NCBI GenBank assembly: GCA_001799845.1
Contig: MGUG01000035.1
Span: 717-64,716, forward strand
Source of the DNA: Elusimicrobia bacterium GWC2_64_44
GTDB taxonomy: Bacteria; Elusimicrobiota; Elusimicrobia; Elusimicrobiales; UBA9959
Length of the DNA: 64,000 nucleotides
Reading direction: 5' to 3'
Shown here: one piece after another, positions 17,129-64,000 of the stretch
How the letters are laid out: each line of letters starts with the position of its first letter
How positions within the stretch are numbered: position 1 is the stretch's first letter
Made by a program: the position numbers and the translations under genes
The notes under the pieces: model-generated
What the model was told of the DNA's origin: nothing
Seen by the model: only the letters and a program-made list of their open reading frames with translations
Databases searched by the model: none

Positions 17129-17191
17129 ATCTATATTCTAAAAGAACCCGATTTCTTTTTGGTTACAAGATTGTTAACAATTTAAAGGGTC

Positions 17192-17285
17192 GGGGACGTT
17201 GTTGAGTTGTTGAGTTGTTCGCAAAGTGTCTAGGGGGCAAGCATGGTCCATACATGAAACAACTCAACAACTCAACAACGTCCCC
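17192..17285. repeat. 28-bp perfect inverted repeat (long hairpin) between the FliF/FliG-fusion gene and the coiled-coil gene
   Basis: ggggacgttgttgagttgttgagttgtt (17192-17219) is the exact reverse complement of aacaactcaacaactcaacaacgtcccc (17258-17285). The loop is 38 nt. Each arm contains 2 tandem gttgagtt units. Confidence 0.85.
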
Positions 17286-17290
17286 TAAAT

Positions 17291-19243: not shown

Positions 19244-19325
19244 ACAGTATTTATTTTATCTTTATCCTATTACAGAAAAGTTTCAGAATCGTTCATTCTT
19301 TACGGCTGGGGGCGCTCGTGGTTGG

Positions 19326-19612: not shown

Positions 19613-19633
19613 CGCCGGCCTGCCCCACCCCTC

Positions 19634-21254: not shown

Positions 21255-21330
21255 TTCGGCAGCCTGACCCCCGCTTACTTAGCGGGTCTAAGCTTTGCGC
21301 CGCCAGCTTTCGCTGGCTTTGCTATTATCG
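21255..21330 (-). promoter_or_regulatory. candidate c-di-GMP-I (GEMM)-like riboswitch aptamer, copy A (5' leader of the PorV-like/motor operon)
   Basis: Minus-strand RNA: CGAUAAUAGCAAAGCCAGCGAAAGCUGGCGGCGCAAAGCUUAGACCCGCUAAGUAAGCGGGGGUCAGGCUGCCGAA. Hairpin 1 is GCCAGC-GAAA-GCUGGC (GNRA loop). Hairpin 2 is CCCGCU-AAGUA-AGCGGG. The flanks GCAAA, GCGCAAAGC and GCUGCCGAA match my memory of the GEMM consensus (GCAAA..GNRA..GACGCAAAGC..ACCGAA). It is 68/76 identical to copy B, with stem differences compensatory. Confidence 0.6.
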
Positions 21331-21375
21331 TAACAATACGGCATTACAACGCTGTTACAGATTTACGGCATTAAT

Positions 21376-21409: not shown

Positions 21410-21429
21410 GGTATTGACATGTCAATACC
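21410..21429. promoter_or_regulatory. perfect 20-bp palindrome upstream of promoter A (operator/activator-site candidate)
   Basis: ggtattgaca/tgtcaatacc is self-complementary. Its core TTGACA-TGTCAA sits just upstream of the -35. The counterpart ttgac-ag-gtcaa lies at 63381..63392, at the equivalent position of promoter B. Confidence 0.55.
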
Positions 21430-42700: not shown

Positions 42701-45700
42701 GGGCGGCGTCCTGTCCCAGATGAAGGTCCTGGAGGAGACGCCGTCGGTAAAGCCGGCCTGCAGGTTGGCGGCGAAGTCCAGCGCACGCACGTTCACCACG
42801 TAGTCCTTGCCTGACCCCAGCGCCGACTCCAGGTTGGGGTGGGCGTAGGACCAGGTATCCGTGCCGACGGCCACGTTGAATGTGGAGGCGGAGATGGCGA
42901 AGCCGCCCGAACCGTGCTCCCAGCGCTTGTCGGCCTGCACGTCGTAGATCTGCACCTCCACGGTGCGCAGGTCGGACTTGTAATTGGGCGAATACACGCC
43001 CAGCGGGTCGTAGGCGGTGCCGTTGAGGCCCGTCAGACCGCGCAGGACCTGCCTGTTGCCGGGGAAAGCCAGGTAGCCTGACGGCGGGGTAGTATCGAAC
43101 AGCACCTGGTACGAGGCCATGCTGCTCTCGTTGTTCTCGACGTTGCCGGCCTTGTCCTTGGGCAGCAGCAGCACCCGGTAGCGGCGGCCGTCCTGCAGGG
43201 CGGGATTTACCTGGGTGGCGGTGGACCAGTTAACGGTGATATCCGGGGTGTAACTGGTCTCCAGGCTGACGCTGTTGACCGAGAAACTCGAGCCGGTCCA
43301 GTAGTAACCGTTCTCCACGTCCTTGATCCTGATATAAACGGCGCCGCCGAAGCCCTGCTGCAGCGAGGGCTGCGTTATGTTGGTAGGGTCGCTCGCGGTG
43401 CCCCAGATCGCCGGCATCAGGTTTATGTTCGGAACGCTCGGGGACTGCACGACGCCGACCGGCTTGGTATTGTCTATGACCATGCGCCGCTCGGCGTTGT
43501 CGCCGGCCTCGGCGGCCGAGTTGTAAGGCGTGACGGTGACCGTGTAAGAGGCGTTGTCCACGGTGAAGGCCGCGGGGCCGTTGATGGCCTGCACCCAGGC
43601 GCCGCCGACGTGGCTGACGTAGGTATAGGTGTCGTAGCTGACCCACGACAGCGTGGGCTCGTACCACCAGGCCGTCGCGCCCTTGTCGCGCCGCAGGCGC
43701 ACCTGCACGCTGTCGGCGTCGCGCAGGTTGGAGCCGCTGCCCTTGATGTTGAGCATGTCGGCCGCCTTGAAGTTGCGGTCGTCGGGACCCATCGGGGTGT
43801 CGATGTAGGCCACGGGCCGCGGGGTCTTCAGCAGGAAATTCGTGTCCACGTTCTCGAACGCGCCCATCGACTTCTCGTTGTTGCCCTTGTCTATGGCCAG
43901 CGCTATCACGTCGTACTGGCTCTCGTTGATCCACGGGACCCCGGAGGTGTTCCAGGTCCAGGTGCTGGGCTGCGCCGGGTCGGAGTTGTAAGCCACGGTG
44001 GCCGTGGTGAACCAGATGCGGCTGTTCGGGTACAGGCCGCCGGGGCAGGCGGCGAAAGTATTGGTGACATTGTCGTAGCAGCGCGGCGCGCCGGTGCCGG
44101 TGTTCTGGCGCAGCGAGACCCTGACCATCCAACCGGCCTTCAGTTCGCCGGGGTAAGTGTCGTGCGCCGTACCGGAGATCGCCGACACCGAGGCCACCTC
44201 GCCTATGGGCACCAGCGCGCGGGAGGTGGGCGGCGTGGTGTCGCCGGTAAAGTAGTTGGTCGTGTACTGCGTTTCCATCTGGCCCAGGATATCGCGCACG
44301 CGGCTCATCGCGTAATAGGTGGTGCCGTCCTGGATGGCGCCGCCCGGCAAGCTGTAAGTCCAGGTGCCGGAGGAGGCGCCGGCAAAGACCGCCGCCTTCC
44401 ACTGGCGGGAAGGCTGCGTAAACGCCCCGCCGTCCCACCACAGGTTGCCGCGCAGTTCCTGCATGGCCACCTCGACGCCGGCGGCGAAAGTGCTGATGCC
44501 GGCCTCGTAATTCTGCGGCGCGGTGAAGGCCCTGAGATATTCCACGGAATCGTCCGCGGTGCCGTTGATGGCGGGTACGGCGCCGATGAAGCTGTTATGC
44601 ACCGGGAAGGCCACCTTGGAGGTCGGCGTGGTCATGTCCACGAGGAACGTGAAGCTGGAGTAGTACGCCCCGGAGACGTTGTTGAGGGCCTGGTCGCGGG
44701 CGTAACTGAAGAGCGTGTACTCGTAGCCGTCCTCCTGGGAAGCCGGGCTGACCACCTTGCTCCAGCTCAGGATGCCGCTGACGCCGAAAGTGTCGCCGGC
44801 GGCGGCGGCCCAGTTGTTATTGATGAAGCTCCAGTAGCTGTTGTCGGAGCGTTTGAGCTTCAGGCGGACCTCGCTGACGCCCGCTGGCTCGATGCCGGCG
44901 TCGAAGGCCGTGCCGGCTATCAGGCCGGTGGAAACGGCCAAAGCGGCGGCGTTCGGCACCGTGAAGTTGGTGCTCGGCAGCGTGGCGTCGTAGGTGAAGT
45001 AATAAGCGGCGGAGTTATCCGCGTTCAGGTTGGCGTCCACCTGCGCCTTGGAGGGCGAGGCCTGCCAGTTGCCGGCCTTGTCCCAGGCGCGGGTCCAGAC
45101 CGAGATCTTGTGGCTGTCCACCGTGACCAGCGAGGGCAGGGCCAGCGACCAGGCGCCGTTGGCGTAAGCGGCGGTGCTCCAGTTGACGTGGCTCACGGAG
45201 CTGTCGTCCCAGGAATTGGTCTCCCAGTTCCAGGTGGCGTTGAAGCTGCCGCGCGCCTTGACCAGCACGTGCACCCCGGCGATGACGCCGGTGTCCGTCA
45301 CCACGCCGTAAAGCATCGGGGCGCTGCTCTGGAAGGACACATTGACGGGAGACGTCGTGACAGAGATCGGGGCCTCGTTGTCGAACTGCACAATCCGGCC
45401 GGCCTCGGCGGGGATATCGGCCGTCTGCGGCTCGCCGACCGCGGGACCGAACTCTTTATTGAGGGCCAGGTCGTAAGCGTAGGTCACGAAGCGGTAGTTC
45501 TGCCGCTTGTTGGTGGCTATGGCCGACTGCAGCCCGGCAGGCAGCGCGTAGGTCCAGTTTACTCCGGGCTGACCCATGCTGTAAGGCGAGGTGTCGACGT
45601 AAGCCTCGAACCACGCGGGCGCCGGCTGGTCGAAGGCCGAGCCGCTCCACCAGTCGCCGCCTACCAGGCGGATGGCGACCTTTACGGTGTAGGTGCCGAG

Positions 45701-48700
45701 GGCGGACTCATAGACGCGCGCGGCGTAGCGTTCGTCGCTGGCCTGGCCCGAGACGAAGGGTATGGCGGTCACGAACTCGTCGGCCGGCGCCAGCACCGTG
45801 GACGTGGGTTTCTCCAGGTCGTATTTGACCGTGACGGCGGCGATGGCGGAATCGTTGCCGGCCAGGTCCGAGGTCCTGGCCTGGACGTAGTAGCGGTGGT
45901 CGTTCTCCAGCGGCAGGTCCCCGTCGTTCCAGTTCCAGGCGGCCGGGGTGCCCTGCGCGGGCAGCCACAGCGTACCGGCGCAGGCGGAGAAGGCGTTCCC
46001 GTCGAAACACTGGGAGATCTCGAGGTCGGAGATGGATACGGCGGCGGTGCTGGGCCCGGTGAAAGGCGCCGTCTGCGCGCTGGAACCGGTGCCGGCCAGG
46101 GGAGTGGAAACGAACACCCTGGAATAGGTGCGGGCGAGCGGGAAAGACAGCGAGGCCAGCGGCGGCGTTATGTCATACGTTACCGTATAAGTGGAGTAGA
46201 CCGAGGAATAATTTCCGGCGTAGTCCAGCGAGCGGGCCACGGCCGTATAGGCCAGGTCGTCCTGCAGCATGGCGGCCGGCACAGTGTAATACCAGGAGGT
46301 GGGCCCCAGTTTGGCCGTCGTGATCCAGTATTCCCCCGCCTGCCAGACCGAAGAGGCGTGGTTCCAGTAGCGCTCGCTGCCGACGGCGCCGGTGGAGATC
46401 TTGAGCTCGGTGCGGTTGATGCCCGAGATGTCGGCCGAGGCCGTGCCGCCTATGCCCGGCAGCGCCCGGACGGCGTTCTCCGTAGGCGTGGTGACAAGGA
46501 CGGCCGGCGGCGTATTGTCCACTATAAAGTAGCGCACGTTGGCGCCGCGCGCCTGCGGGTTCTCCCAGTTGCCGTCCCCGGAGTCGTCGGCCAGGCGCGC
46601 GTCGTCCATGGTCTTTATCTCGACCTTGTACTCGCGGTCGGTGGCGTCCCAGTTCACGTCGGTCAGGTAGACCCAGGTGCCGCCAGTTCCGGCCGGCGTC
46701 ACCTGCACCGGCTGCCAGGCGGCCTCGGCCCCGCTCAGGGTGAAGTTGGGCGGAGTCCAGTACCAGGTGTCGTTGCCCTGCAGGTAGGACAGGCGGATGC
46801 GGCCGTCGCTCAGGCCGGCGTTGTTCTGGCTGTAGGCGTTGTCGTTGGCCGAGCCCTGCAGGCGGGTGCTGGTGGCGCCCTTGCCGATATTGGCCGGCCT
46901 GTAGCGGCCGTTCACGCCGTCCAGGTCATCGGCCGGCAGCGTGAAGAGCGAGGCCGGCGGCATCTTGTCCATCTTGATCACGCGCGAGGAGACCGGCGCG
47001 GAGAACTGGTCCTGCTCGTTGCCGCCCACGTCGAGGCCCTTGGCCAGCACCAGGTACGCCAGGCCGCTGGTGCCTGCGGTAAAGCGGCTGTCGAGGCCGG
47101 AGGGCGCGTACATCCAGCTGGTGGCGTCCGGCGAGAGGAAGCCGCTGGTATTGCCCTTCAGGGCTATCCAGACCGGAGCCGCGCCGCCGGCCAGGAAGTC
47201 GGTGCCGTTGAACCACTGCGGCGGGGTGTCCAGCTGCTGCACGGCTATATAGACCTCGGAGTTCTGGAAATTGTCGAGCGCCGTGCCGGAAAGAGCTGCC
47301 AGCTGCCGCACGCCGCTGGCGTTGGCGTCCTGCGGCGCGCCTATGTTGGCGGTAGGCGACGTGATGTCTATAGTGAACTGGAAAGGCGCGGCGGAACCGT
47401 TGTTGCCGGCTTTGTCCGTGGCCACCAGTTCCACCACGTAGGTATGGTCGGGTTCGAAGGCCCGGCCGGCGGAGAAATAGTCGGTGGTATAGGTGAGCAG
47501 GCCGGTCTTCAGCGTATCGTTCCAGTTCAGCGAGGCCGTGAGGTTGGTGAACGGCGGCGCCGCGGCGGTGAAGGTGGAGGCCTGAGTGTTCCAGAACTCC
47601 TCAGCGCCCTGGCGCTTGACCCTGAAGTAGGCGGAAACCACGGTGCCGGGGGAGGTATCGGCCACGGTGCCGGCCAGCGCGCCCAGGGAGCGCAGGTAGA
47701 CCTTGTTGGGCATGGTGACGCCGGCGGACGGGTTGGTGATGTCCAGCACGAACTCGCGGCCGAGGGCAGGCGTTTCGGCGAGGCCGTTGGTGTGGGAGGC
47801 CTTGGAGGCCACGCTATAACGCCTGTTGCCGTTCCACGCCGGCACGGTCAGGGCCCAGCCGGGACCCGGGAAGGTATTAACCCCGACGTAGCCGGGAGTG
47901 ACCGCCCAGGCGGTGGTGGTAGAGACCCAGCTCACACCGCTCCAGACCAGGTCGTCGTTGCCCTCGCCCAGCTTAAGGTCGGGGCCGTAATCCAGTATGC
48001 GCACGGCCACGGTGGTGGCGTAGACGGCGGTACCCAGGATGGACGGTATGGTGTCGGCCCGGTAATGCGGCACACCGGCGGGCGGGGTATTGATGGAGGA
48101 GACCGGCGGCGGCGGGAACAGCTTGAACTGTATCAGAGCGGAATCGGGCAGGGCCTGGCCCGGCTTGGGGACCTCGTTGGCGGCCTGGTCCACCGCCTTG
48201 GCGAAGATCTGGTACTGCACGCCGGTCATCTCGGTGTACCAGGTGGGCGAGGACGGCCCGGTGGCCTGCCAGGAACCGCCGGCCACGGTCGTCGCGTCGT
48301 AGAATTTCTCCGTCCCCAGGTCCCAGGCGCCTGTGACGTTGTTCCAGTACTTGCCGGCGCAGACGCTGTCCACGCAGTAGTAAGAGATGCTCACCTTGTC
48401 CAGCGTGCCGGGCGCGAAGTCGGAGGCGGAACCGGAAATAACGGTCAGCTCGGAATGCACGTCTACGCCGTGCGTCGGGTAGGTCACGGTGGAAACGGGG
48501 TTAGTGAAGTCGGCCTTGACGGCCGTGGCGGTGGCGTAGACCAGCTGGTAGTTGCCGGCGCGGTCGCGCGCCCAGGCGTCCACCTCGTAGGTCTCGCCGC
48601 TCTGCCACGGCGCGGTATTGAGCTGCCACCAGGTGCCGCCGGAGCTGAGGGTGCCGTAGCCCAGCACGCTGTTCTCTATGGCGCCTACGGCCCAGGAAGA

Positions 48701-51700
48701 CCCGGCTATGCTCCAGTACTTGCCGGCCTCGGCGCCGGCGGTCTGCTTAATGCGCACCTGGATATCGTAAACGCGCCCGTTGGGGCGGTCGAAGGAGCCG
48801 CCGGTGATCTTGCCGGTCTGGCTGATATAGCCGTTGTTGTACGGGTAGAAGATGGCCGCCGTCGGGCGCGTGACGTCGTAGATGAACGAGGATTTCAGCC
48901 CGTAGCCTTCCTGGTTAAGGGCGGCGTCGCCGGCGTTGGTACGCACGTAGAAGATCCTGCCGTCATTGCCCGCGAACATGGCCGGGTTGATGTCCCAGGT
49001 CCAGTTGGCGTAGGGAGAGTTGGCGCTGAGCTGCTGCGGCGTGGCGCTCCAGCCGTTGACGCCGTTCCAGTACCAGCCGTCGGAGTCGCGCGTAACGTAG
49101 AGGGACAGTTCCGAAACGCCGGAAGAGCCGGGGTCGTAGCTGGTGCCCTGCACCTGGCCCGGCAGCGTGTTGAGGTGCTGCGCTTCGGAAGGCACCGTAA
49201 CGGTGGAAACGGGGGCCTCGCTATCGTAGAGGAACGTCGCCGTGGTATAGACGGTGTCGTAGTTGCCGGTTATGTCTACCGCGCGGGCGCGGATGCGGTA
49301 GGAGGCGCCGCTGGTCCAGGTGGAATCCTGGATGTTATAGGACCAGGTGGAAGAGGTGGTCCAGACGGTCTCCGTGACGGGCAGCCAGGGCGCGGCGTTC
49401 TCCTGCGCGCCGGGCGCAGACCAGGGCGGGTTCAGCGCCGGGTTGTAGTATTTATTCAGCGAGGTCATGAACACCGTGATGCGGGTGCTGGCCACCTTCA
49501 GGTTGTCGCCGGAAGTACCGCCTATCACGGGCAGGCTGTTATAGCTGGGCAGCACCGGGGCGGTGAAGTAGCTGACCGGCTTCTCGTTGTCGTAGCGGAT
49601 CGTGACGCCGTTGGCGGGCGGCACGTCGGTATCCAGCGGCTGGCCGCTGTTGGGCCCGTATTCCGGGTTGAGCGCCAGGTCGTAGGAGAAGGGCACTATG
49701 CGGTACTGGGAATTCTGGTTCAGCGGGTTGGTCAGGTAAGTGACCATGCCGCTCGGCAGGGAATAGACGAATTTGCCGGTATTGATGCCAGTGGTGGTCA
49801 GGTTCGCCTCGTACCACTTCGGGTCGGTTCCGGTGAAGTCGGTGTCGTTCCACCACCCGAGCTCGGCGCCGGTCAGGCGCTTGAGGGCCACCTTCACGGT
49901 ATAGGTGCCCAGGTCGGCCCGGTAAGTGTCGGCGAAATCCGCGGCCGTGCCGAGGATCTGCGTGAAGCCCGTGGTATAGCCGGTCAGGGGATAGGTGATC
50001 GTGGAAGTAGGCGTGTTGAGGTCGTACTTCACGGTCACGGCGGAAGGCGCGGACTCGTTGCCGGCGAAGTCGACGGCCTTGGCCTCTATCTTGTACTGGC
50101 GGTTGCCGGAGAAGGTCAGGAAGGCGCTGTTGTAGGTCCAGTTCGCCGGGGCGCCCTGAGCCGCCAGCCAGAAAGGACAGGCCACGAAGAACGAGCCGTT
50201 AAAACAGGTGGTGTTGCCCAGGTCGGTGATCTGCAGAGTGACCCCGCTGACCTTGGCGTAGGTCTCGGCCTGGTCGTCCTGGTTGGACGTGCCGGCGAGA
50301 GGCGTGGAGAGTTTGATGCCGGAATAGGCGACGCCCTGCGCCGGGTGCGCGACGGCCACGTACGGCGCCACCGTGTCGTACACGAACGTGTAGGTGGAGT
50401 AGAGCGAGGAATAGTTGCCGGCGTAGTCCTTGCTGCGCACGTCGGCGGTATACGCTTTGTCGTCGACCAGGATAGACCCGGGCAGCGTGTAATACCAGGA
50501 GGTCGGCCCTTCTTTAGTCGTCTGTATCCAGGTCTCTACGGTCTCGGTCCAGGCGGAGCCGCTCCAGTAGCGGATGCCGGTGCCCGTGCCGGTGGAGAGC
50601 CGTATCTGCGTGAATTCGTGGCCGGCCAGGTCCGCGTTGGCGGTGCCGTAGATCGTGAAGGGCGTCTTCTGCGCCAGGGCCGTAGGGGAGGTGATCAGCA
50701 CCGCGGGCGGCGTGCCGTCCACTATGAAGGTCCTGGTGGTATAGGCCGTCTCCCAGTTGCCCTCCCCCCCGTCGTTGGGCAGGCGCGCGTCGTCCATGGC
50801 CCGGGCCTGCAGGCGGTACTCCCGGTCCTGGGCCGGCCAGTTTATCGCCGTGTAATAGTCCCATGACCAGCTGGGAGCCGCGCCGGAAAGGTCCGCGTCG
50901 GCCCAGGAAGTGACCTCGGTCACGGTCCAGGAACTGAAGGCGGCGCCGGTCCAGTAATAGGTGTCTCCGGACTGCAGGTAGCTGAGGCGCACCTGCACCG
51001 TATTCACGCCCGCGCTGGTGGAAGCGGGCAGGTCGAACGCGGAACCGCGGAAATACGAGCCGGCCTGGCCTATCGCGAGCGGGTGGTAGCGGCCGGTAAC
51101 CCCGCCGGCGTCGTCGACAGGGCGGGAGATGGAGGAACCGGGCTTTTCCTTGTCCACGCGGACGATGATGGAGGAGACGCCCACGCCGAACTGCGTCTGC
51201 AGGTTGCCGGCGGTATCGGAGGAACGGACCAGCACGAGGTAGTTGAAGCCGGAAGCGAAGTCGTCGTCGAGGCCGGCCGGGGCGTAGGCCCAGCTGGTGG
51301 CGTCCGGGGACAGGAAGCCGTTGGCGCCGGTGATCCTTATCCAGCTCGGGTTGTCGCCCGACACCGTGAAGTCGGAGCCGCTGTACCAGCGCTGCGGGTC
51401 GGCGTACTTGCGGATGGCGATGTCCACCGCGGCGTTGCTGTAGGCGTCCTGCGCGGTGCCGGAGAGGGCGGGCAGCGTGCGTACGCCGTTGCCGTTGGCG
51501 TCGCCGGGCGAGGAAATGCCCGCCGACGGAGGGGTCCTGTCCACCACTATGCGTTTGCCGATGCCGGGCGGGATATCGGCCGCCTGCGGCTCGCCGGAAT
51601 TGGGGCCGAACTCGCGGTTGCTGGCCAGGTCGTAGGACCACGGCACCAGCCAGTAAGCGACGCCCTCATTGGCGACAAGGTCCATCTCGGACTTCATGCC

Positions 51701-54700
51701 AGCCGGTAGAGTGTAGGTGAAGTTCACCGGGAAATTGCCGGCCGCCGTGTCGGTATAGGTCTCGTACCAGGCCGGCTGCACGCCGCCGAAGTCGGCGCCG
51801 TTCCACCAGCCCGCCGGCGCGCTCACGCGCATCACGGCTACCTTGACGGTATAGGTGCCCAGCTTGGCCTCGTAGGCGCGCCCGCCGTACTGTTCGTCCG
51901 TGGCCTGGCCGCGCAGCTGGCCGAAGCCGGTGGTAGAGCCCTGCAGCGGGTAATTTATGGTCGAGGTCGGACGCTCCAGGTCGTAATTGATGGTGGCGGT
52001 GACCGGCGCGGATTCGTTGCCGGCGAAGTCCACGGATTTGGCACGCACTATGTAGCGGTGGTCGTTGACAAAGACCAGGTCCGGGTCATTGAAGGTCCAG
52101 TTGGCCGGGTTGCCCTGCGCGCCTTGCCAGACGGGGCAGGGCGAGAAGCCGGCGCCGTTGAAGCAGCCCGGGGCCGTCAGGTCTTCTACCTGCACCGTCA
52201 CCGTGCTGACAAGCGAGTAGGGATCCGTCTGATCGGCCTGGTCGGAGGCGCCGACGGCTTCGGTGGAGAGCTTGACGTGCGAGTAAGTCCCTCCTTCGGC
52301 CGGATGCGACATCGAGACATGGGGCGCGACGTCGTCGAAGGTGAAGTTATAGGTCGAATAGAGCGTCGAGTAATTGCCGGCGCTGTCGAGAGTGCGGGCC
52401 TCGGCGGCATACGGCATGTCGCTGGCCAGCATGGCGCCGGGCAGGGTGTAATACCAGGAGGTAGACCCCTGCTTGACGGACTGGATCCAGGCCGCGGGAT
52501 CGTTGCCGTCGGCGGTCCAGCCGGCGCCGGACCAGTAGCGGGTGTTCACGCCGGAACCGGTGGAAACGCGCACGTAGGTCTTATCGTGGCCGGACTTGTC
52601 CGCGTTGGCGGTACCGTAGATGGTGAAAACGGCCCGCTGCGCCGGAGCGGTGGGCGAGGTGACCAGCACCGCCGGCGGGGTGGTGTCGAGCACTACCTCG
52701 TAAACGGTGCCGAAGGCGCCGGAATTCTGCGGCACGGCGTTGTCTATGCCGCGCACGGCCACCATGTATTTCTGGTCCGAATAGAAGTTCGCCGAAGGCA
52801 GGGTATAGTCCCAGTTCGGAGGCGTAAAGGCGTCCGGCTGGAAATCGGAAGGCGTGGAAGACCAGGAGAGGCCCGTCCAGTAATAGGTAGTGCTGCCCTC
52901 CAGCCTGCCTATCTGCACCCGCAGGTTGGCTACGCTGTCGACCCCGGCCGGGGTATCCGAGGCGAGGCCGCTTATGGTCCAGGCGGACCCCGGGTTCACG
53001 CTGCCGTTCCCGTCGCCGTCCTCATAGCCGGTTATCGACGCCGCCGGCGGCTGCACGTCCCAGACCATGGTGAACGAGGATTCGTCGAGCACGTAGGTTT
53101 GCTGGGTGTTGCCCTGCGGGAGCGCGGTGTCGCGGGCCCGCACGCGCAGTATGTACGAATAGCCCTGCGTGAAGGCGGCCGGCGGCGGCAGGAGCGAGTG
53201 GGTCCAGGAAGAGATCGCAAGGCCGGGCGCGTGGATGGTGGAAGTGCCCCAGTAGACTTCTGCCTCCTGCGTCTGGGCAGCGTCCCAGGTACCGGTGTTC
53301 CACTTCCAGTAGCGCAGCGCGTCGCTGCCCTGCGCGGGCCGCTTGATATGCACCAGCACCTTGTCCAGTTTGCCGACGGCGCCGCCGGGGCCGGCCACGT
53401 CCCAGGCTGTGCCGTGCAGCGCGTCCAGCGAGGACCGGACATTGCCGCTGACCGCGGTGACGGTGGAGTTGACGGCGATATAATCGTCGAGCTGCGCCAC
53501 CGGCGAACTGCGGTCCACGATGAAATCCACCGCCGCGCCCAACTGCTGGTTGGTGGCCCGGTCGCTGGCCCTGGGCGTAATGCGGTAGCTGCCGCCGTCG
53601 GTCCAGGCCGGCAGGTTCACGCCGAGCGACCAGACCGTGCCGGCCACGGTAGTAGTGGACCAGACTATGCTGTCCTGCCACGCGGTGGTGACCGGGTTCC
53701 AGTAGGTGGTGGACTGCGACAGGTCCTGTATGGCTATCTCGCTCTTGTCCAGCAGGCCGGGCGAGACGTCCGAGACGGCGCCGGACAGCTGCGGCAGGCG
53801 CTGGTAGATCAGCGCGGCCGGCACGCCCACGGCTATCGAGGGCGGCGTCGCGTCATAGACTACGGTATTGCCCACCAGGTCTATAAGCTGCTCCTCGCCG
53901 GCGGTGCCGTAACCCTTGGAGAGGAAGTAGTAGGAGGTATTGTCGGTCCAGGCCTCCGTGGAAATGTTCGTATCCCAGTCCCAGTACAGGCTCGAGTCGC
54001 CCAGGATGGAGACGTTGGAGGCGTTATGGTACGCGCGCGGGGCGGCTTCCGCGGAACCCGGGGCGGAGAAGGAGCTGCCGTACCAGTAATAACCGTCGGT
54101 CTTGCGCTCCACGGAAACCTTCACGCTGGAGACCGTGGAGAAAGTGAACTTGGAGGCGCCGCCGGATACCACCTGGGGTTTCGCCTTCATGTGAGAGGTG
54201 TTCGCCGGCGCGCTGATCCAGGTGCCGGGGTACGGCGCGGTGTAGTACATGTTCTTGCGCCAGACCGTGGACTCGGTGTTATTGGCCTTGTCGCGGGCGT
54301 GGGCGCGCACCGAGTACCAAGCGTTGTTCCATTGCCAGACGGTATCGGGCACGTCGTAGGACCAGTTCCCGCCGGTTATGGTCACCGAGGAGACCGGCAC
54401 CCACGAGGTGGAATTATTCTGCCAGCTCTGGCCGTCGTAGGTCCAGGTGATGGCGCCGCCCTGGCCGCTGGGGCTGTAGCCGAACTGCAGGAGGATATTG
54501 TTCAGTTCGCCCGGCGCGGCGTCGAACGCGGTGCCGGTGACCTGCGGCAGCGGGATCTCGCCGTAGGAAAGCCCTTCGCCGGGCACGGAGATGGTGGACG
54601 AGGGCGCGGTAAAGTCGGCCTTGATGGCGGTGACCGTGGAATAGACCGGCTCGGCATTGCCGGCGCGGTCCATGGCGTACGAGTTCATCTCGTAGGTCTC

Positions 54701-57700
54701 GCCGGACTGCCAGGGCGTGGTAGCAAGCTGCCACCAGGTGGCGGAGGGGCTCAGCGTGCCGTAAGAGGTAACGCTGTTCCAGACCTCGGGCGAATTTTCC
54801 ACGGTCCAGCTGGAATCGGACACGCGCCAGTAATGGTCGGCCTTGGGGCCGGTCAGCTGCTTAATGCGCAGCTTGATCTCAGTGGTCACGCCGAAGGGTT
54901 TGTCGTAGGCCTCGCCCGTCACCTTGCCGGTCTGGCTGATATAGCCGTTATTGTACGGGTAGGTGATGGTATTGGTCGGGCTCGTGACGTCGTAGACGAA
55001 GGTGGACTTGACCGAGGGTGTTTCCTGGTTGGTCGCGCGGTCGGTGGCCCAGGAGGTGACCGTGTACTGCTCGCCGTCTATATAGGCGGCCTCGCCGTCC
55101 ACCAGGTAGGTCCAGTTGGCGTAAGGCGGCGAGCCGGGCAGAGGCTGCGCCGGGCCCCAGCCGATACCGTTCCAGTAGTCGCCGTTGGACTTGCGCAGGT
55201 AGAACTTAAGGTCGTTAACCCCGGAGAAAGCGTCCGAGGTGGAGCCCAGCAGGGTTATCTGCTTGGCGGCCAGCGGCAGGTGGGCGTTGTTGGCCGGGTA
55301 CGAAACCGCGGAGCCGGGGATCTCCGTGTCGAACTGGAACGTGGCGGTGGCATAGGTCACGTCCCAGTTGCCGTACTCGTCGCGGGACCTGACGCGGACG
55401 CGGTAATTAGCGCCGCTGGTCCAGGAGGAGTCCTCTATGGTGTAAGTCCAGGTGGCGGAGGTGTCCCAGACCGTCACCTGAGGAGTTATCCACGGGGCGT
55501 CGTTGTCCGAGGCGCAGGTAGTGTCGTTCCAGGCCCCGCTCAGCGCCGGGTCATAGCACTTGCCCTGGTTATAGTTCATCATGCTGAACTGCACGGCGTT
55601 GGCGCCGGAGTTATCGTCGGCGTAGCCGGACAGGGTAGTAAGCGTCCTGTAGGCGACGGCCGACGGCGAGGTAATGACGCTGACCGGCCGCTGGTTCAGG
55701 AAGTCACGGGTGGAATACACCACCGAGTAGTTGCCGGCGTAATCCAGCGCGCGCGCGGATACAGTATAAGTGGCCTTCTCCACCAGCATGGACGGGGAAA
55801 CGGTGTAGTACCAGGAGGTCGGCCCCATCCTGAAGGAGTCGTTCCAGGTTTCAGGCTCGGTAACCCACTGGGTCAGCGCGGCGCTCCAGTAGCGCGTGGT
55901 GCCGCCGGTGCCGGTGGAAATGCGCACCTGCGTCTTGCGGAAACCGGCTATGTCCCCGTCGGCGCTGCCGTAGATATTGGTGTTGGCGTTCAGCGACAGC
56001 TCCGTCGGCGTGGTGATGGCCACGGCGGGCGGCGTGTCGTCGACAATAAAGCGCTTCGTGTTGGCGCCGGTGACGGCCGTCTCCCAGTTGCCGTCGGTGC
56101 CGCCGTTGTAGGGGCGCGCGGCGTCCATGGAGCGGCTTTCCAGCTTGTACTCCCTGTCCCCCGCGGGCCAAATGATATCGGTGGGATACAGCCAGGAACC
56201 GGAGCCGGAGGCGTCCCTCCACGACACGGAACCCGCGGCGGTGCCGGAGCTGAAGACGGCGCCCACCCAGTACCAGGTGTCGTTGGAGAGCAGGTAGGAC
56301 AGGCGGATCTGGCTCTTCTCCACGCCGGCGTTGTTGGCGGCGTAGAAATTATCCAGCGCCCCGCCGTAGAAGCGGGAAGAGGTGCCGGACTTGCCGATAC
56401 TGGCGGATTTGTAGCGGCCGCTCTCGCCGTCGCCGTAGTCGGCCGGCAGCGTGATCGAGGTTGCCGGCGGCTGCTTGTCCACGTAGATCACGCGCGACGA
56501 GATATTTACGGCCAGGTCCTCCTGGATATTGCCGGCCACGTCGGTGGAGCGCACCAGTATCAGGTACTTGAGGCCGCCGGTCATGGCGGTGTCGAGGCCG
56601 GCCGGGACATAGGCCCAGCTGGTGGCGTCCGGTGACAGGAAACTGCCGCCGCCGGCCACGTCCCGCCAAACCGGCTCGGCCTGCAGAGAGTTAAAGCCGG
56701 CGCCGTCGTACCAGAGCTGCGGGCTGCCCCACTGGTGCACGGCTATCTGCACGCCTTCGTTGCGGCCGTTGTCCGAGGCCGTACCGGAGATCTGCGGCAG
56801 GGCGCTGACGCCGGAGGCGCCTGTGGGCAGCAGTATCCTGGCCGTCGGCGAGGCGGTGTCAATGGTGAACTGCTGGTAAGGCGCCGGGAAATATTTGGCG
56901 CGGTTGGCCTTGTCCGTAATGCGTGCCTGCACCTCGTAGGTGCGGCTGTTCTCAAAAACCGGCAGGCCGGTGTTGAGATACCAGTATTCCAGCGCGGAAT
57001 CGAAAGCCCCGTCGTCGGCCACGGTCTGGAGCCAGGTCACGGAAGCCTCCCAGCTGTCGCCGTCCCAATAGTAGGTGCCGGCCAGCGTGGAGATGGCCAC
57101 CTCGACGTTCTGCACCTTGCCCTCGCCGGAGTCGCTGGCGGTACCGTAGATGGAAGGCAGGCTGCGCTCGTACACGGCGTTGGGCTCCACCAGGGTGCTG
57201 GCCGGGTCGTCGCCGTCGATATAGAAATAGCGCTCGGAGAACGGCGTGAGCTCCAGCGTGGCGTCGGCGGCCGCGCGCACCTTCAGGCTGAAGCTGTTGG
57301 TGCCGGCGGGCCAGATGCCGGTGATGTTCTTTGACCATAGCCCGCCGCCCACGCTGTCCACGCCGAAGTAACCGCACGAGGCAACGCCGACTTCGTAGGA
57401 CTCGTCGGTGCAGCCGGCGAGGTAGGTGGCGGTGGAGATCCAGCCGCCCGGGGTCCAGACCTGGTCAGGCTCGGCGGTAAGGTTGGTGATCATCACCTGC
57501 GCCGTAGTGGCGGCGGCCAGGGAGCCGTTTATAAAGCTCAGGTCCGCGGGCCTGTAATACGGGATGCCTCCGAGGGGCACGGATATGGACGAGTCCGGCA
57601 TCGGCGTTATCTTGTTTATCCTTATCAGGGCGGAGCCGGTGGGCGGCGTGGTAAAACCGGCGTAGCCGGGGAAGGTGGTCTTGTTCCCGACGGCGTCCAT

Positions 57701-60700
57701 CGCGCGAGCGAAGACCAGGTAGGTAAGGCCGTTCTCCAGGACCGGGATGCTGGACCCCGTCACGGTCCACTGCACCGGCGTGGCGGTATTGGTGGAAGCT
57801 TCCACGAAGGCCGTGTCCGGCGGCGGGTTGACGTCGTCGCCTACGTCGAAGGTGCCGACGGAGGCCGGGTTCCACCACTTGCGGGCCGTAAGGCTGAAAT
57901 AGGCCACGTGGACGTGCTTGATGGCCGTGTAGGAGTCCTGGGCCGTGCCGGCCACGGTGTCGAGCACGTAGACATTCTCGGAGGCCGGCTGCTGTATCAG
58001 CGCGGCCGGGGTGCTCTTGTCCACTTTAAAGGTGTTGCGGTTGCGGCCCTGCACAAAGATGGCTTCGACATTGGGTTTTGGCCCGTTGTCTTTATCCAGC
58101 GCGCTGTCCATGGAGCGGACACGCACGTGGTAGGAGCGGCCGTCCGCGGCCGCCGCGAACAGCGAGGCCGTATTGTAGGAATAGGTGCTGTCGGCGACGT
58201 TGGGCATGTCCTTCCAGGTGGCCGCCGAGCCGCAGGTGCCGGAATAGTCGGTGCCGTTCCAGCAGGTGTTCTCAAGGTCGTCGCGGATCTCCACCTGCAT
58301 GCCGCTGACGCTGCCGCCGGAGGCCAGGCCCGCGAGCGGCAGGTCGGTGGCGGTGCCTAGCACGGAGGCCAGCTGGTAGCCGGGCTGGTTGCTGTACCAG
58401 TTGTCGTTGAGCGGGCTCAGCAGCGTGGAAGTGGGCGGCTGCACCTCGTAGCGGAAAGAGAGCTTCAGCGTTTCGGAGGAGCCCTTGTTGCGGTAGTCCT
58501 CGTCGGGCAGGTCCACGTTGTCCTGCGACCAGGCGTAGACCAGGAACTCGTCGGCCGTGGGCACCGGCACCGGCGGGTGGCCGGGGTAATCCACGTCGGA
58601 CCAGAAGCCGCCCATGCTCTGGTGGGCCCAGTCCAGCGCCGGGGCCTGGCAAGAGTCGTCGCGCTCGTTCTGGGGCATCCAGCCGGTGCCTGTGCCGGTC
58701 CACCATTTCAGGTCCGACAGGCGCTGCACGCCTATGCAGGTCAGGTTCAGGCCGGCCTGGCGCGTGGTATCAGGCATGTCCTTGGCCGTGCCGGCGATGT
58801 TGGTGAGCTCGGTGTCCGAATAAGTGCCGCCGGGCAGCGGGTTAAGCACCTCGGTGGCCGGCGGCGTGGCGTCGTACTTGAAGACCACGGTGGAATAGAC
58901 GGTGGCGTAGTTGAGCGCCTTGTCCCGGGACTTCGCCACCAGGGTGTATTCCTCGCCACTGGTCCACTTGGCGGCCTCCTGTGTTTCGGAGGACTGCCAG
59001 ACATCGAAGGGGACGGTGGTGGTGGTGGCCGCCAGGTTCCATATAGAATCGGTCTGGGACACCCAGTTCTTAAGCGGCTTGCTCCACTTGGAGAGGTTTT
59101 CCGGGAATTCGAGCGAATACTCCACGCTGCCCACGCGCGAGATGGGGTCGTTGGAGGTGCCGATGAGCGCGGTCAGGGAGCCCAGGCCGTACTTGCCGCC
59201 GCTCACGGGGAACTGGATCTTGTTGGTAGGGGCGGTGCCGTCGTAGTAGAAGTAGCCGCTGGTGGCAGGGGAGAGCGCGGTGCCGGTGGAATTGCCGGCT
59301 GCGTCCTCGGCGTAAAGCGCCACGCTGTACCAGTAGCCGTCCTGCCAGTTGGTGGAGATGGCGATGCTGTAGCCGAACGGGTCTCCGGCGGGGGCGTACT
59401 GCGCCGAGGCGAACGTCGGCGCCGGCGAGGCGCAGGCCGAACCCCACTTGGTGCCGCCGCCCTGCTCGTAGACGCAGTAGCGCACCCAGCGCTTGCCTAT
59501 GACGGGGTCCACCACGTTGTCGGTGATGGCGCCCTCCAGCAGCGTCACGGAGTTCTTCCAGACGTTGGCGGGGTCGGCCAAGCTTACCGGGCCCTCCGGA
59601 TAGTCCATCGGGTCCATCAGGGGGCTCGGGCTGGTGACCGTCACGGTGGGCGCGCTCAGGTCGTAATAGAACTCGCGGTTGCTGCTGGCCGAACCCTGCG
59701 AGAAATAGTCGCCCTGGCGCTGCGCGATGCGGTACTTGCGGCCGTCGGTGAAAGTGGGCAGCTTGGCGTGCAGCACATTGTCCGGCACGCTCTTGACTAT
59801 GGTATCTATATTCTTATAGGTACACTCCGTGCCGCAGGAGAACTTGGTGATCTCTCCGGGCGGAGACGGGATCTTGACCATGTAGTACCAGGTGGCGGCG
59901 GCCTGGAAACCTGTGGCTGTAAAACCGGTCCAGTACTGGTCGTTCAGGTCGAAAACATTGTCCACGGAATCGCGCAGCTGCATCTCTATGTACTTGATGC
60001 CGGAGGCCGTGTCGGTGGATTTGCCCTGTATATAGGGTATGCTTTTTTTGCTGGAGTTGGCTTCGGGGAAAGAGAAGTTGCCGTCCGAAGGGGTCTTGTC
60101 CACCGTGAAGACCACGGGGTTGGACGGCGAGCCGAAGCCGCGGTCGTTGGTGCGGCCGCGCGACTCTATCTGGAAAGTCTGGCCACTGGCCTGGGCTACC
60201 GCGTCGTTGTACCAGCCGGTATGGGTCCAGCTCGCGACGCCGCCGGTGACCTGTATCCACTGCTGGCCGTAAACGCCGGGGTCTATATAGGCGTCGGCGC
60301 CGTTCCACTGGAAACCTGCCTGGGCGCCGCTGAGCAGCGTCACCCGCACCTGCGGGGCTATGGACGCCTGGCCCGCGGCAGGGGCGAAGCTGGCCGTGCC
60401 GGTTATGGAGGCGATACCGCTGGAATAGGAAATCGGCTCTACCGGGTAAGTAAGTTCCGAAGAGGGCACCGTGACGGTGGCGATGCCCACCTTTAGCACC
60501 TCGCGGGCGTCGTAGTTGATGACGCGCATGTCCATCGGTCCGGCGGAGACGGACTGGTCCACAGTGAAGTGGACGCTGACGGTGACGCTGGTAACGCCTA
60601 TCGGGGTCATGCTGGTGACGGTGACGCCGTCCAGCGGTTCCCCGTTGCGCTCGAAAGAGAGCGAGGGCGTCGGGTTATTGAAGAGGTTGGTGCCTGTCAG

Positions 60701-62104: not shown

Positions 62105-62737
62105 TTATTTTTTCGGCAGCGTCTGCAGCGCGTTGCCGGCCCAGAGCGCCGTTTTGGCGTCCTTGCCGGCCTTCAGCGCGTTCAGGGCGGCGCGCGCCCT
62201 GGCGGTACCTGTCTTGGCCAGGCTGTTGACCGCCGCCTTGCGCACCAGTTCGTCCTTGTCCTCGGCGGCGGCCTTGCGCAGCGGCTCCACGCCGTCGTCC
62301 GACTTAAGCCTGCCCAGCACCTCGGCCGACTTCAGCCGGGTATTGCGGTCGGCGTGGGACAGCAGGGCGCCCAGGGTCTTGGCCGCGCGCTTGTCGCCCA
62401 GGTCGCCCAGGGCGTCTATCAGCGGCAGGCGGGTTTCGTCGCCGGCCGCGGCCAGTGCGTCGGTAAGGGTTTTGTAGGCGGTCTTGTCGCCGGACTTGGC
62501 GAGCAGGCGGGCCGAGCGCTCGCGGACCTCGGGGTCCTTGTCGGCCATGGCCCGCTTGAGCAGTTCCGGCTTGCGCTGGTCCTGCATCCCGGACAGCTTG
62601 TTCAGGGCCTTGCGGCGCGTCTTGAAGTCGCCATCTGCCAGCTCGGCCTCGACCGAGGACAGTTCAGCCGACTGCTGGGCGGCGGCGAACACGGCGGGGA
62701 GCGCTATTAATATTACAGTAAATAGTAGTCTGTGCAT
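62105..62737 (-). CDS. periplasmic HEAT-repeat protein, translationally coupled to the giant gene
   Basis: I prefer the ATG at 62737 (MHRLLFTVILIALPAVFAAAQQ signal peptide) over the ORF-track start at 62953, which runs through an AT-rich non-coding-looking stretch. HEAT/PBS-lyase-type repeats: DPEVRERSARLLAKSGD, DETRLPLIDALGDLGD, DRNTRLKSAEVLGRL, DKDELVRKAAVNSLAKTG. The stop TAA (62105-62107) lies 6 nt before the giant-gene ATG (62098). Confidence 0.75.
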   Translation of the reverse strand: MHRLLFTVILIALPAVFAAAQQSAELSSVEAELADGDFKTRRKALNKLSGMQDQRKPELLKRAMADKDPEVRERSARLLAKSGDKTAYKTLTDALAAAGDETRLPLIDALGDLGDKRAAKTLGALLSHADRNTRLKSAEVLGRLKSDDGVEPLRKAAAEDKDELVRKAAVNSLAKTGTARARAALNALKAGKDAKTALWAGNALQTLPKK

Positions 62738-62806
62738 AGGCAAACAAAAAACGACCAGACCTTGCCCAGGCGTTTTTTTCCAGGGGCAAAGCACGGATAT
62801 TAAACC

Positions 62807-62834
62807 ATTATAATATAAATTAATTGTTTCGCAA
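62807..62834 (-). promoter_or_regulatory. possible proximal promoter (TTGCGA-16 nt-TATAAT) in an AT-rich patch
   Basis: On the minus strand the -35 is TTGCGA (62834..62829) and the -10 is TATAAT (62812..62807). The AT-rich context could produce this by chance. Confidence 0.3.
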
Positions 62835-62951
62835 ACGTTAAACGCGCGTGAACGACCGCCGGATACAATACAGCATCCTTCTCCCCTTCCGGGCAGACCG
62901 CCATAATATCCACGCGCCGTCACGGCTCTGGACATTTCGCCTCCCAGGCCC

Positions 62952-63026
62952 AAAAAAAGGGCCGTTTCTGCTCTCTTCGCCTCAACCCGGTTCTGGGCTG
63001 ATACCCCGAAGACAGCGGAAACGGCC
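62952..63026 (-). terminator. terminator-like hairpin about 50 nt downstream of aptamer B (candidate expression platform)
   Basis: On the minus-strand RNA, GGCCGUUUC (63026..63018) pairs with GAAACGGCC (62968..62960). C-U7 follows immediately (62959..62952). The enclosed loop of about 49 nt may add further pairs. Confidence 0.4.
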
Positions 63027-63073
63027 TAAATCCGTTCCGACACGCCGGCACAAAAACCGGTCGGTTCTTCATC

Positions 63074-63149
63074 TTCGGCAGCCTGACCCCCGTTCACATA
63101 ACGGGTCTTAGCTTTGCGCCGCCGGCTTTAGCCGGCTTTGCTATTATCG
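63074..63149 (-). promoter_or_regulatory. candidate c-di-GMP-I (GEMM)-like riboswitch aptamer, copy B (5' leader of the HEAT + giant-gene operon)
   Basis: Minus-strand RNA: CGAUAAUAGCAAAGCCGGCUAAAGCCGGCGGCGCAAAGCUAAGACCCGUUAUGUGAACGGGGGUCAGGCUGCCGAA. It has the same flanks as copy A. Hairpin 1 is GCCGGC-UAAA-GCCGGC and hairpin 2 is CCCGUU-AUGUG-AACGGG. Relative to copy A, both stems keep pairing through double substitutions. Confidence 0.6.
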
Positions 63150-63164
63150 GATACTTCAAAAAAC

Positions 63165-63271
63165 GTCCCGCCCTTTTGGGACACACACCGCGCTCACACT
63201 GCACCGCGTCTGTCTGCGACCGCAACCGCGACCGCACCGAACTACTCCGCACCGAGCCAAAAGGGCGGGAC
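63165..63271 (-). repeat. 15-bp inverted repeat bounding a 77-nt insert in leader B; terminator-like on the RNA
   Basis: gtcccgcccttttgg (63165-63179) is the reverse complement of ccaaaagggcgggac (63257-63271). On the minus-strand RNA the hairpin is followed by GUUUUUUG. The segment is absent from leader A, which has only 45 nt between the -10 and the aptamer. Confidence 0.6.
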
Positions 63272-63341
63272 ACCACGACCGCACTACAACCACGCTACGC
63301 AACGCCACAACCGCACCGCAACTGCACCACGCTGCAAATAT

Positions 63342-63369
63342 AGTATAGCAGATGGAGCGGGTTTGTCAA
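63342..63369 (-). promoter_or_regulatory. sigma70-type promoter B (TTGACA-16 nt-TGcTATACT)
   Basis: On the minus strand the -35 is TTGACA (63369..63364), the spacer is 16 nt, and the extended -10 is TGC-TATACT (-10 at 63347..63342). The flanking sequence is homologous to promoter A (tatagcagat....gggtttgtcaag). The upstream palindrome ttgac-ag-gtcaa is at 63381..63392. Confidence 0.65.
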
Positions 63370-63480
63370 GCCCTGCCAGCTTGACAGGTCAACACCTGGC
63401 CGCCGACGAAAACACTCGGCGGTTAACTGCCCGGACCCGCGCCGCAACGCTTGGCAGGGCGGCCGCATGGCCCAGTCAGA

Positions 63481-64000
63481 TCACTTCGTGCCGGCCTCTT
63501 TCCCGTTCGACAGCAGGATCAGTTTGGTGTTCGGGGCGCCGCTAGGCAGCACCTTTACGCCGAACACTCCCTTCGCTTTTATCCTGCGCAGGGCTTCTTC
63601 AGTATTGAGCAGTACGGCTTTACCGCCAGGCTTCAGCAGGCCCGGCAGCCTGGCCAGGAAGCCGTCCAGAACCCGGCCATCGTCTCCGTCCAGGAACGCC
63701 TTCCCCTCGTACGAAGCGGCGTCGCCCTCCAGGTAGGGCATATTGGCCAGCACATGGTCGAACCCGGAGAAACCCTCCGGCAGGGTCACGGCGGTAATAT
63801 CGCCCACTACCGAATGCAGGCGGAAGCCGGCCAGGGCGGCCAGCGCGCGGGTGTTAGCGACCGCAAGCGGATTTATGTCCAGGGCGTAAATATCCGAGCC
63901 GGAGTTCAGCCAGGCCAGCCAGGAATCCGCGCCTGAGCCGCTGCCGACCACCAGCACCTTGTCGCCTTTCTTTATGCCGCCGTCCCTGAGCACATAGTTG
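63481..64000 (-). CDS. class I SAM-dependent methyltransferase (5' end probably beyond the window)
   Basis: Motif I is VLVVGSGSGADS, followed by DIYALDINPLAV and a post-I acidic residue. The frame stays open to the window edge, and the ORF-track start at 63993 is a GTG. Confidence 0.7.
   Translation of the reverse strand, partial: NYVLRDGGIKKGDKVLVVGSGSGADSWLAWLNSGSDIYALDINPLAVANTRALAALAGFRLHSVVGDITAVTLPEGFSGFDHVLANMPYLEGDAASYEGKAFLDGDDGRVLDGFLARLPGLLKPGGKAVLLNTEEALRRIKAKGVFGVKVLPSGAPNTKLILLSNGKEAGTK

Follow-up and report, generated by a model that had tools for sequence, protein, structure and literature searches.

What occupies the roughly 190 nt that separate promoter from riboswitch in one of two otherwise similar bacterial leaders, and what might it do ahead of a 40-kb gene? 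The question is posed by a 64,000-nucleotide stretch of the Elusimicrobia bacterium GWC2_64_44 (contig MGUG01000035.1, positions 717 to 64,716), here called the window, whose own positions serve as coordinates. Two leaders, A and B, are transcribed from its minus strand, on which all features named below lie unless stated otherwise; leader B precedes a gene for a HEAT-repeat protein (62105..62737), followed by a giant open reading frame (ORF) of 13,461 codons, 40 kb long (62098..21713). The initial annotation took A and B to share both promoter and aptamer, and this holds: the promoter regions are 83% identical, an upstream palindrome included, and the aptamers, 90% identical with compensatory differences in both hairpins, each match the cyclic di-GMP-I (c-di-GMP-I, or GEMM-I) family. 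From −10 to aptamer we measure 189 nt in leader B, where about 190 had been given, and 42 nt in leader A, close to the 45 proposed. Our preferred answer, to which we assign a probability of about 0.45, is that the upstream 190 nt of leader B are a conserved, uncatalogued leader RNA domain whose closing helix, P1, forms together with its U-rich tail a first attenuator, in series with the terminator of the riboswitch.

Read along the RNA, the element opens with a G/U-rich tract (63272..63335) of tandem G-Y-R-G-Y pentamers and hexamers (GCGGU, GUGGU, GCAGU, GUAGU). The transcript here consists of 43% G, 27% U, 20% C, and 10% A. Its 184 nt contain eight copies of GCGGU, whereas 5000 composition-matched shuffles averaged 0.8 and had five at the highest; none of the window's other 184-nt stretches exceeds eight, and the plus strand reaches four at most. 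The strand-asymmetric, GCGGU-rich tract described at the outset is thus real, and its unusual feature is local density alone, the count of GCGGT over the whole window being uninformative. Distances from one GG to another within the tract peak at 5, 6, 11, and 16 nt. The 184-nt leader RNA as a whole folds at −83.8 kcal/mol (z = −3.3 against shuffles).

Three helices follow. The 5′ arm of P1, GUCCCGCCCUUUUGG (63257..63271), pairs with the 3′ arm, CCAAAAGGGCGGGAC (63165..63179), over all 15 positions, as expected from the 15-bp perfect inverted repeat reported before, with 77 nt between the arms; by a rough estimate, the chance of a perfect 15-mer repeat in the region is ~1e-4. Inside P1 lie the joining segment J1/2 (CUCGGUGCGG...) and a candidate helix P2 (together 63215..63256), the latter of the form UGCGGUCGC-GGUU-GCGGUCGCA, in which the wobble-palindromic GCGGUCGC (GCGGUCG(C/U)), able to pair with itself via G.U wobbles, supplies both arms. 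The hairpin P3 (GACA-G-ACGC-G-GUGC / GCGC-G-GUGU-G-UGUC; 63180..63214) adjoins the 3′ arm of P1 with zero unpaired nucleotides, giving a coaxial stack of ~27 bp. Directly 3′ of P1 comes the tail GUUUUUUG (63157..63164), which contains the U-run that had been noticed after the first hairpin, in the form of G + U6 + G. What first looked like a simple terminator hairpin is instead the 15-bp closing helix of a multi-helix domain of ~100–150 nt.

Relatives of the locus were gathered through homologues of the first-gene HEAT protein at 51–60% identity, one of which comes from an Elusimicrobiales metagenome-assembled genome (MAG; name as given by NCBI). The identical HEAT protein is also found on groundwater metagenome contigs; six of these contigs have leaders ~100% identical to the window's and, being essentially the same sequence, say nothing on conservation. 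In the relatives the order of genes is the same, with FtsH, a hypothetical protein, peptidase S41, the leader, the HEAT gene, and then a gene of 11,700–12,800 codons, and each syntenic locus has a c-di-GMP-I aptamer in its leader. In all six orthologous leaders whose upstream sequence is complete, the element stands between promoter and aptamer; since protein homology was the means of finding them, these leaders are unbiased toward carrying it.

The set was widened with sequence patterns that contain no aptamer sequence. The exact pattern of the P1 3′ arm, GTGTGTCCCAAAAGRGCGGG, was found in 11 genomes of a 185,579-species collection, all of them Elusimicrobia MAGs with one match each, and a pattern two bases longer, GTGTGTGTCCCAAAAGRGCGGG, matched on 11 metagenome contigs of the Joint Genome Institute (JGI). 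Pooling yields 19 distinct complete elements, all between the promoter sequence CTGCTATAATA and the aptamer, which follows 17–65 nt downstream in every locus, two truncated contigs included. A covariance model built from their alignment recovers exactly one copy per locus at 92–146 bits (220 kb searched) and no second copy in the 64-kb window, where the P1 arm sequence likewise has no other match. The element exists, then, as a conserved, folded unit at a fixed position, and a group of Elusimicrobia from groundwater has it in one copy per genome.

P1 is paired in 18/18 aligned sequences, with 12 invariant pairs, one alternating between G-C and G-U, and two with compensatory changes (U-A to C-G in seven sequences, C-G to U-A in two); 99.3% of its alignment cells are paired, against 38–62% after sliding the partner columns. 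Its predicted pairing probability across the 19 sequences is 0.92–0.998 and its predicted worth 17–26 kcal/mol. All nine pairs of P2 are compatible in the 12–15 alignable sequences, three of them G.U and none covarying. P3 has the consensus GACA-G-RCGC-G-GU.../...-GUGU-G-UGUC, and its core GCGGUCGCAGACAG is kept in all aligned relatives except one (locus L035), while the length of its tip varies, from a minimal loop in L018 to an extra perfect hairpin in L028. P1, GCGGUCGCAGACAG, and GGUGUGUGUC are the near-invariant segments, and the joining segment inside P1 is also conserved (GGCUUGGUAC...). The rest is elastic: P1 encloses 77–120 nt, the 5′ tract measures 15–202 nt, and the motif count runs from 9 to 27. 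The tail is an interrupted U-run, GUUUAUUU, in most relatives; at least five U fall within the 8 nt after P1 in 14/19 sequences, in genomes of ~63% G+C, with four in L008 and L027, three in L035, and two in L012, whose tail CUUCAGCG has essentially no U-run.

These features mark the element as a structure formed by RNA, not as a DNA repeat or an inversion switch, since its helices contain G.U wobbles, its strand asymmetry is constant, its tail is one-sided, and its orientation is always the same. A perfect 15-bp inverted repeat around a short segment between promoter and gene, absent from leader A, is what one would expect of an inverton or of a miniature inverted-repeat transposable element (MITE), and the initial annotation had considered a MITE-like insert. 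We regard insertion, neutral or otherwise, and inversion alike as having next to no chance of being the explanation. A dispersed repeat is contradicted by the single copy in each of the 11 genomes and at each locus over 220 kb, and presence/absence polymorphism by the element's occurrence at the orthologous site in all relatives, with sequence and structure conserved. An inverton is contradicted by the orientation, which is the same on every contig, six independent assemblies from the population of the window among them, and by the neighbours, which are FtsH, peptidase S41, and a methyltransferase, with no recombinase or transposase gene nearby. The search for further copies, proposed as a way of recognising a repeat family, therefore speaks against such a family, but the sequence is not neutral or recently inserted DNA either, being kept in every protein-retrieved orthologous leader.

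Two further ways of reading the stretch were tried and set aside. A plus-strand ORF (63138..63545) runs over the element, and we take it as spurious because the core lengths of the relatives (101–153 nt) do not differ by multiples of three, which also disposes of a coding sequence in general. An RNA G-quadruplex was rejected on its G4Hunter scores (means of 0.13–0.43, best 25-nt stretch at most 1.16, against a cut-off of ~1.2). Nor does the upstream element correspond to a catalogued RNA: Rfam 15 yields no match to it in the window at gathering score, nor even at E <= 10, the best being the Pseudomonas small RNA P4, whose 17.5 bits fall short of its gathering score of 37, and no match at E <= 1 in the elements of five relatives. 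No description of it was found in literature mentioning both Elusimicrobia and riboswitches. To judge from sequence and predicted fold, the leader combines two modules in tandem, the first of them a new RNA motif that is restricted to this lineage and lies outside Rfam 15.

What might this first module do? A second attenuator, or a small RNA (sRNA) ending near 63158, both raised in the initial annotation, remain the leading readings. Attenuation is suggested by the end of the domain, which in the window has the traits of an intrinsic terminator, a GC-rich stem with GGGAC at its base and then GUUUUUUG. The 3′ arm can alternatively form a local hairpin, GUCCC-AAAAGGGC-GGGAC, at −8.7 kcal/mol, a compact terminator form and the one picked by a terminator scan, P1 itself enclosing 77 nt. 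Under attenuation, transcription from the near-consensus promoter would mostly end near 63158, yielding a G/U-rich RNA of ~175 nt, and read-through polymerases alone would transcribe the GEMM-I riboswitch, which is of the A20 type discussed below. The riboswitch terminator, with its U7 at 62958..62952, would then be a second, ligand-dependent checkpoint before the Shine-Dalgarno sequence and ATG, the HEAT gene, and the 40-kb gene. Because P1 is far too stable for toggling by a small ligand, either a fixed, small share of polymerases would pass the first stop, or a factor would determine how many do, the best candidate being a multimeric RNA-binding protein or an elongation factor recognising the GCGGU array and the invariant core. 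That the two stops are conditional, as proposed at the outset, and would together amount to a two-input logic, we infer from their order and architecture.

Several observations weigh against this reading of P1 and its tail. The U-tail has at least 5/8 U in 14/19 elements, but only 2/8 in L012; since it is interrupted in most relatives, absent in L012, and weak in L008, L027, and L035, termination cannot be the sole conserved function. P1 encloses 77–120 nt, compared with the 3–8-nt loops of typical terminators. It is also nearly invariant, while the riboswitch terminator stem covaries freely in the same leaders, and this invariance suggests sequence-specific recognition or a second role beyond that of a hairpin. 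The invariance itself has to be read with care, as the 3′ arm of the pattern-scan loci was fixed by the search pattern, and the covariation rests on two pairs and probably on few independent events. A conserved anti-terminator alternative to P1 was not found, and neither in the window nor in the flanks examined did we find a gene for a candidate binding protein, whether TRAP-like, NusG/KOW, or of another RNA-binding kind. A motif count of 9–27 would, moreover, fit poorly with a ring protein of fixed stoichiometry.

The sRNA reading accepts the same stop and differs in which output matters: the ~175-nt G/U-rich transcript would be the functional product, acting in trans by pairing with C/A-rich targets or by titrating a protein through its GCGGU motifs, and riboswitch and operon would be reached by read-through. 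A near-consensus promoter followed by a stable 3′ hairpin and a U-run is the standard architecture of a bacterial sRNA, and a reiterated motif whose copy number varies between species, here from 9 to 27, is also seen in sponge RNAs; the G/U-rich region of GcvB pairs with C/A-rich targets, and CsrB and RsmZ titrate a protein through many motifs. Like the latter two, the element reiterates a motif in variable number, and like GcvB it has a G/U-rich region, ending in a hairpin of the Rho-independent type. It differs from all of them in always being part of an mRNA leader before a riboswitch and in having GCGGU rather than a GGA motif. The constant place beside an aptamer, in 21 distinct loci found with an aptamer-free search pattern, speaks for action in cis; L012 has lost the U-tail, no Rfam sRNA model matches, and no target or partner was identified. 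We consider a trans-acting sRNA unlikely, though compatible with attenuation.

Termination may not be involved at all if the domain, as a tightly folded 5′ module rich in G and poor in C, stabilises or processes a very long leader and mRNA that is in part untranslated, by blocking decay that depends on the 5′ end, by resisting Rho loading, or by offering an RNase III site in the P1/P3 stack. The transcript is indeed the opposite of a Rho-loading site in its G and C content, its fold is very stable, its U-tail is dispensable in some lineages, and P1 and P3 abut directly. We nevertheless hold this to be distinctly unlikely, seeing that leader A, with the same promoter and aptamer, lacks the element, that the near-invariance of P1, GCGGUCGCAGACAG, and GGUGUGUGUC goes beyond the needs of a generic protective hairpin, and that the U-rich tail is kept in most lineages. 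A second small-molecule aptamer is, in our estimate, highly improbable. The three-helix core would have a metabolite as its ligand and make up, with the GEMM-I riboswitch, a gate with two inputs; the conserved core, the variable helix tips, and the terminator-like end all suit this picture, and some c-di-GMP-I riboswitches are known to be preceded by adenosylcobalamin (AdoCbl) or glycine riboswitches (PMC9481103). However, a P1 of 15 GC-rich bp, worth ~−20 kcal/mol or more, is far too stable for ligand toggling, and much of the interior is low-complexity repeat, with no alternative pairing and no Rfam family match.

Improbable, too, is a direct effect on elongation, in which the non-template strand, rich in G and T, or the emerging transcript would recruit a NusG-family paralogue or another antitermination factor, or would serve as closely spaced pause sites, and so ready the polymerase for the 40-kb unit in the manner of RfaH/ops, LoaP with its leader hairpin, put, or EAR. 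GCGGT is the core of the Escherichia coli ops element (GGCGGTAGCGTG; PMC5995543), several relatives have GCGGTAGCG or GGCGGTCGC, and the leaders controlled by LoaP pair a small hairpin with a leader terminator before long operons (PMC12691694), a likeness reinforced by the very long gene here. In ops itself (GGCGGTAGnnTG on the non-template strand), G4, G5, A7, and G8 are essential (PMC5995543). The window element lacks the ops core CGGTAG, as do 11/19 elements, and in the 8/19 that have it, it stands at inconsistent positions; an RfaH site of this kind was accordingly rejected. The same cassette also precedes operons of ordinary size, in L019 and L031; a processive anti-terminator acting upstream would override the riboswitch's own intrinsic terminator; and the covariation in P1, like the G.U pairs, indicates that RNA is the active form and not single-stranded DNA. 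Unlike in the LoaP and RfaH systems (PMC12691694, PMC5995543), no NusG paralogue or KOW gene is seen nearby or in the window, and a riboswitch terminator follows.

The closest parallels to the leader as a whole are tandem leader elements that have their own terminators and act as logic gates, such as AdoCbl/c-di-GMP-I and AdoCbl/c-AMP-GMP in Desulfuromonas acetoxidans or S-adenosylmethionine-I (SAM-I)/AdoCbl on metE (PMC9481103). As in those, two structured modules stand in series here, each ending in a hairpin and a U-run, with the downstream one of the c-di-GMP-I type; the upstream module, however, has no riboswitch or Rfam match, consists largely of G/U pentamer repeats, and is closed by a helix too stable to be switched by a ligand, and its terminator function is predicted, with a U-tail that is not universal. 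The Bacillus trp leader offers a different comparison, since TRAP binds 11 (G/U)AG repeats there and so controls a weak terminator (PMC3064811, PMC4027176). Here, too, a short purine-containing motif recurs every 5–6 nt just upstream of, and overlapping, what would be a weak terminator. A TRAP-type attenuator, in which some 11 (G/U)AG triplets spaced by 2–3 nt overlap an antiterminator, was set aside all the same: the motif is G-Y-R-G-Y rather than (G/U)AG, it is present in 9–27 copies, antiterminator competition was not found, and the phylum is a different one. We also compared the 5′ arm of P1 with the NusB/NusE boxA site of antitermination, a single-stranded (U/C)GCUCUUUA: CGCCCUUUU matches it at 7/9 positions (8/9 in L010 and L021), for which we estimate a chance p of ~0.1–0.2, and the arm is paired in P1. 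The resemblance (CGCUCUUU) is thus of chance level and falls within a helix. The sequence GGUGUGUG corresponds to lambda boxC.

Downstream of the element, aptamer B (63074..63152) scores 55.8 bits and aptamer A (21255..21333) 60.2 bits with the c-di-GMP-I model RF01051, whose gathering score is 35, and the aptamers of the relatives score 55–57 bits. Aptamer and terminator are ordinary members of that class. At permissive thresholds the best clan member for five relatives (L007, L010, L012, L028, and L029) is c-di-GMP-I-GGC (RF03167, 44–51 bits); these scores lie below its gathering score of 59, and at gathering thresholds the same aptamers go to RF01051. As a detail, the first hairpin of aptamer B (63121–63139) is capped by UAAA, replaced by CAAA or UUAA in relatives, and its counterpart in aptamer A (21298–21316) by the GAAA tetraloop of the family consensus; the tetraloop–receptor contact may be different in B-type aptamers.

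The ligand may not be c-di-GMP alone. Both window aptamers and all relatives have A at model position 11 (63142 in B, 21323 in A; sequence AAUAGCAAAGCC), which, by alignment with the Vc2 sequence, we take to correspond to Vc2 G20. The G that makes a ligand contact at this position in c-di-GMP-I riboswitches is thus replaced, in both window aptamers, by the A characteristic of GEMM-Ib, or cyclic AMP-GMP (cGAMP), riboswitches. Such an A is the mark of variants that bind cGAMP or are bispecific (PMC6140456, PMC9481103), and the A20 aptamers accordingly suggest cGAMP-type signalling or dual sensing in these Elusimicrobia. Set beside c-di-GMP-I and GEMM-Ib riboswitches (RF01051; PMC6140456), aptamer B is a clear member with a terminator platform, departing from Vc2 in the A for G20, and it is a neighbour of the upstream element, not the insert itself.

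The expression platform (62952..63073) comprises a small hairpin (CCGACCGG...), a long hairpin that begins ~50 nt past the aptamer (63026..62960; 62960–62979 against 63007–63026, 18/20 complementary), and a run of U7. The hairpin and its U7 had been recognised before and stand, except that the run, placed from 62959, occupies 62958..62952. The stem of the long hairpin has undergone many compensatory substitutions in the relatives (GGCCGUUUCCGCUG, GGCCGUUUUGGCUG, GCCGUUCCCGUCG, each with a matching 3′ strand), and a run of U6–8 is kept after it, in keeping with its earlier designation as a terminator-like platform; a divergent subgroup (L010, L021, L028, and L035) has a compact terminator in its place. 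By these sequence criteria it is a standard, conserved riboswitch terminator. The alternative pairings considered for an ON or OFF polarity of the riboswitch are CCGAAGA/UCUUCGG, AUCCG/CGGAU, and GGAACGG/CCGUUUCC, the last a possible anti-terminator in the platform.

Directly 3′ of the terminator lies a Shine-Dalgarno sequence, GGGAGG-N5-ATG (62933..62945, ATG 62935..62933). From this ATG an open stretch of 66 codons continues into the HEAT gene without a change of frame, both in the window and in 11/14 relatives; in L019 it runs into a glycosyltransferase gene instead, and in three relatives it is a separate ORF of 51–78 codons. Translation of transcripts under riboswitch control might thus yield a HEAT protein with an N-terminal extension, or a leader peptide. 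A promoter-like block (TTGCGA-16-TATAAT, 62807..62834), set within the AT-rich TTTGCGAAACAATTAATTTATATTATAATGG, follows downstream of both stops; it is kept at the nucleotide level in relatives and lies inside the open frame, where the peptide is FNVCETINLYYNGLISVLC. Such a second promoter, if it functions as its sequence would allow, could bypass both stops and drive transcription independently of the riboswitch. A third conserved hairpin (62741–62791, CUUUGCCC...GGGCAAGG) covaries in L007 and L014 and is succeeded by a U-rich run, GGUCGUUUUUUGUUUG, directly before the HEAT ATG at 62737, which has no obvious Shine-Dalgarno sequence. The short form of the HEAT protein (PF13646, HEAT_2), starting from this ATG, has a signal-peptide-like N-terminus, and the giant protein ends in an FlgD Ig-like domain.

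Upstream of the element, the promoter (63342..63369) is of the sigma-70 type, TTGACA-16-TATACT with a TG extended −10, matching consensus at 11/12 positions; CTGCTATAATA is kept in all relatives, and transcription is predicted to start near 63335. Some 12 bp 5′ of the −35 stands the palindrome TTGACCTGTCAA (63381..63392), its core TTGAC-NN-GTCAA kept in the relatives' leaders; leader A has TTGACATGTCAA at the same distance from its −35 (21414–21425), and the variants among relatives are TTGACATGTCAA, TTGACGCGTCAA, and TTGACTTGTCAA. It is probably an operator or activator site that binds a shared transcription factor.

The same leader is found in other company as well. In two relatives, L019 (Elusimicrobiales STC_50, 1–6000) and L031 (1000–6300), the full cassette of G/U element, A20 aptamer, terminator, small ORF, and AT-rich block precedes a different operon, which encodes family-2 glycosyltransferase/radical-SAM/B12-binding fusion proteins; palindrome and promoter are visible in L031 alone, the L019 contig starting inside the element. 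Because a complete leader precedes another operon in two relatives, the cassette is portable. In the window, leader A precedes a gene set located downstream of the giant gene (10000–21250), consisting of an outer-membrane FadL/UPF0164-like protein with TPR, a FliG-like protein with TPR, a 786-aa protein with no assigned function, MotA/ExbB-like and MotB/OmpA-like proteins, an unassigned protein of 249 aa, and a 635-aa HEAT protein. This set may represent a motor-like or secretion apparatus tied to the giant protein.

Uncultivated groundwater bacteria commonly have giant genes of >10,000 codons, the control of whose expression is almost unstudied. The 40-kb gene of the window is preceded by a very strong promoter, an A20-type riboswitch, and an extra conserved RNA domain, for which 19 distinct sequences, aligned and built into a covariance model, now define a motif. 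In view of the A20 aptamers, cGAMP-type signalling may also extend beyond the Geobacter-type examples of the cited literature. Should the first module be mainly a G/U-rich sRNA, Elusimicrobia would gain a rare candidate for a regulatory small RNA; should it be an attenuator that depends on a factor, it would form a new tandem logic gate beside those catalogued for c-di-GMP-I riboswitches and reveal a new protein–RNA or polymerase–RNA regulatory pair. In its fullest form, which we put forward as a doubtful but possible outcome, this would be a new attenuation system in which a multimeric RNA-binding or elongation factor reads the GCGGU array and the invariant three-helix core, controls passage of a built-in terminator and, together with the cGAMP/c-di-GMP riboswitch, places a two-key lock on the giant surface-protein and glycosylation operons of Elusimicrobia.

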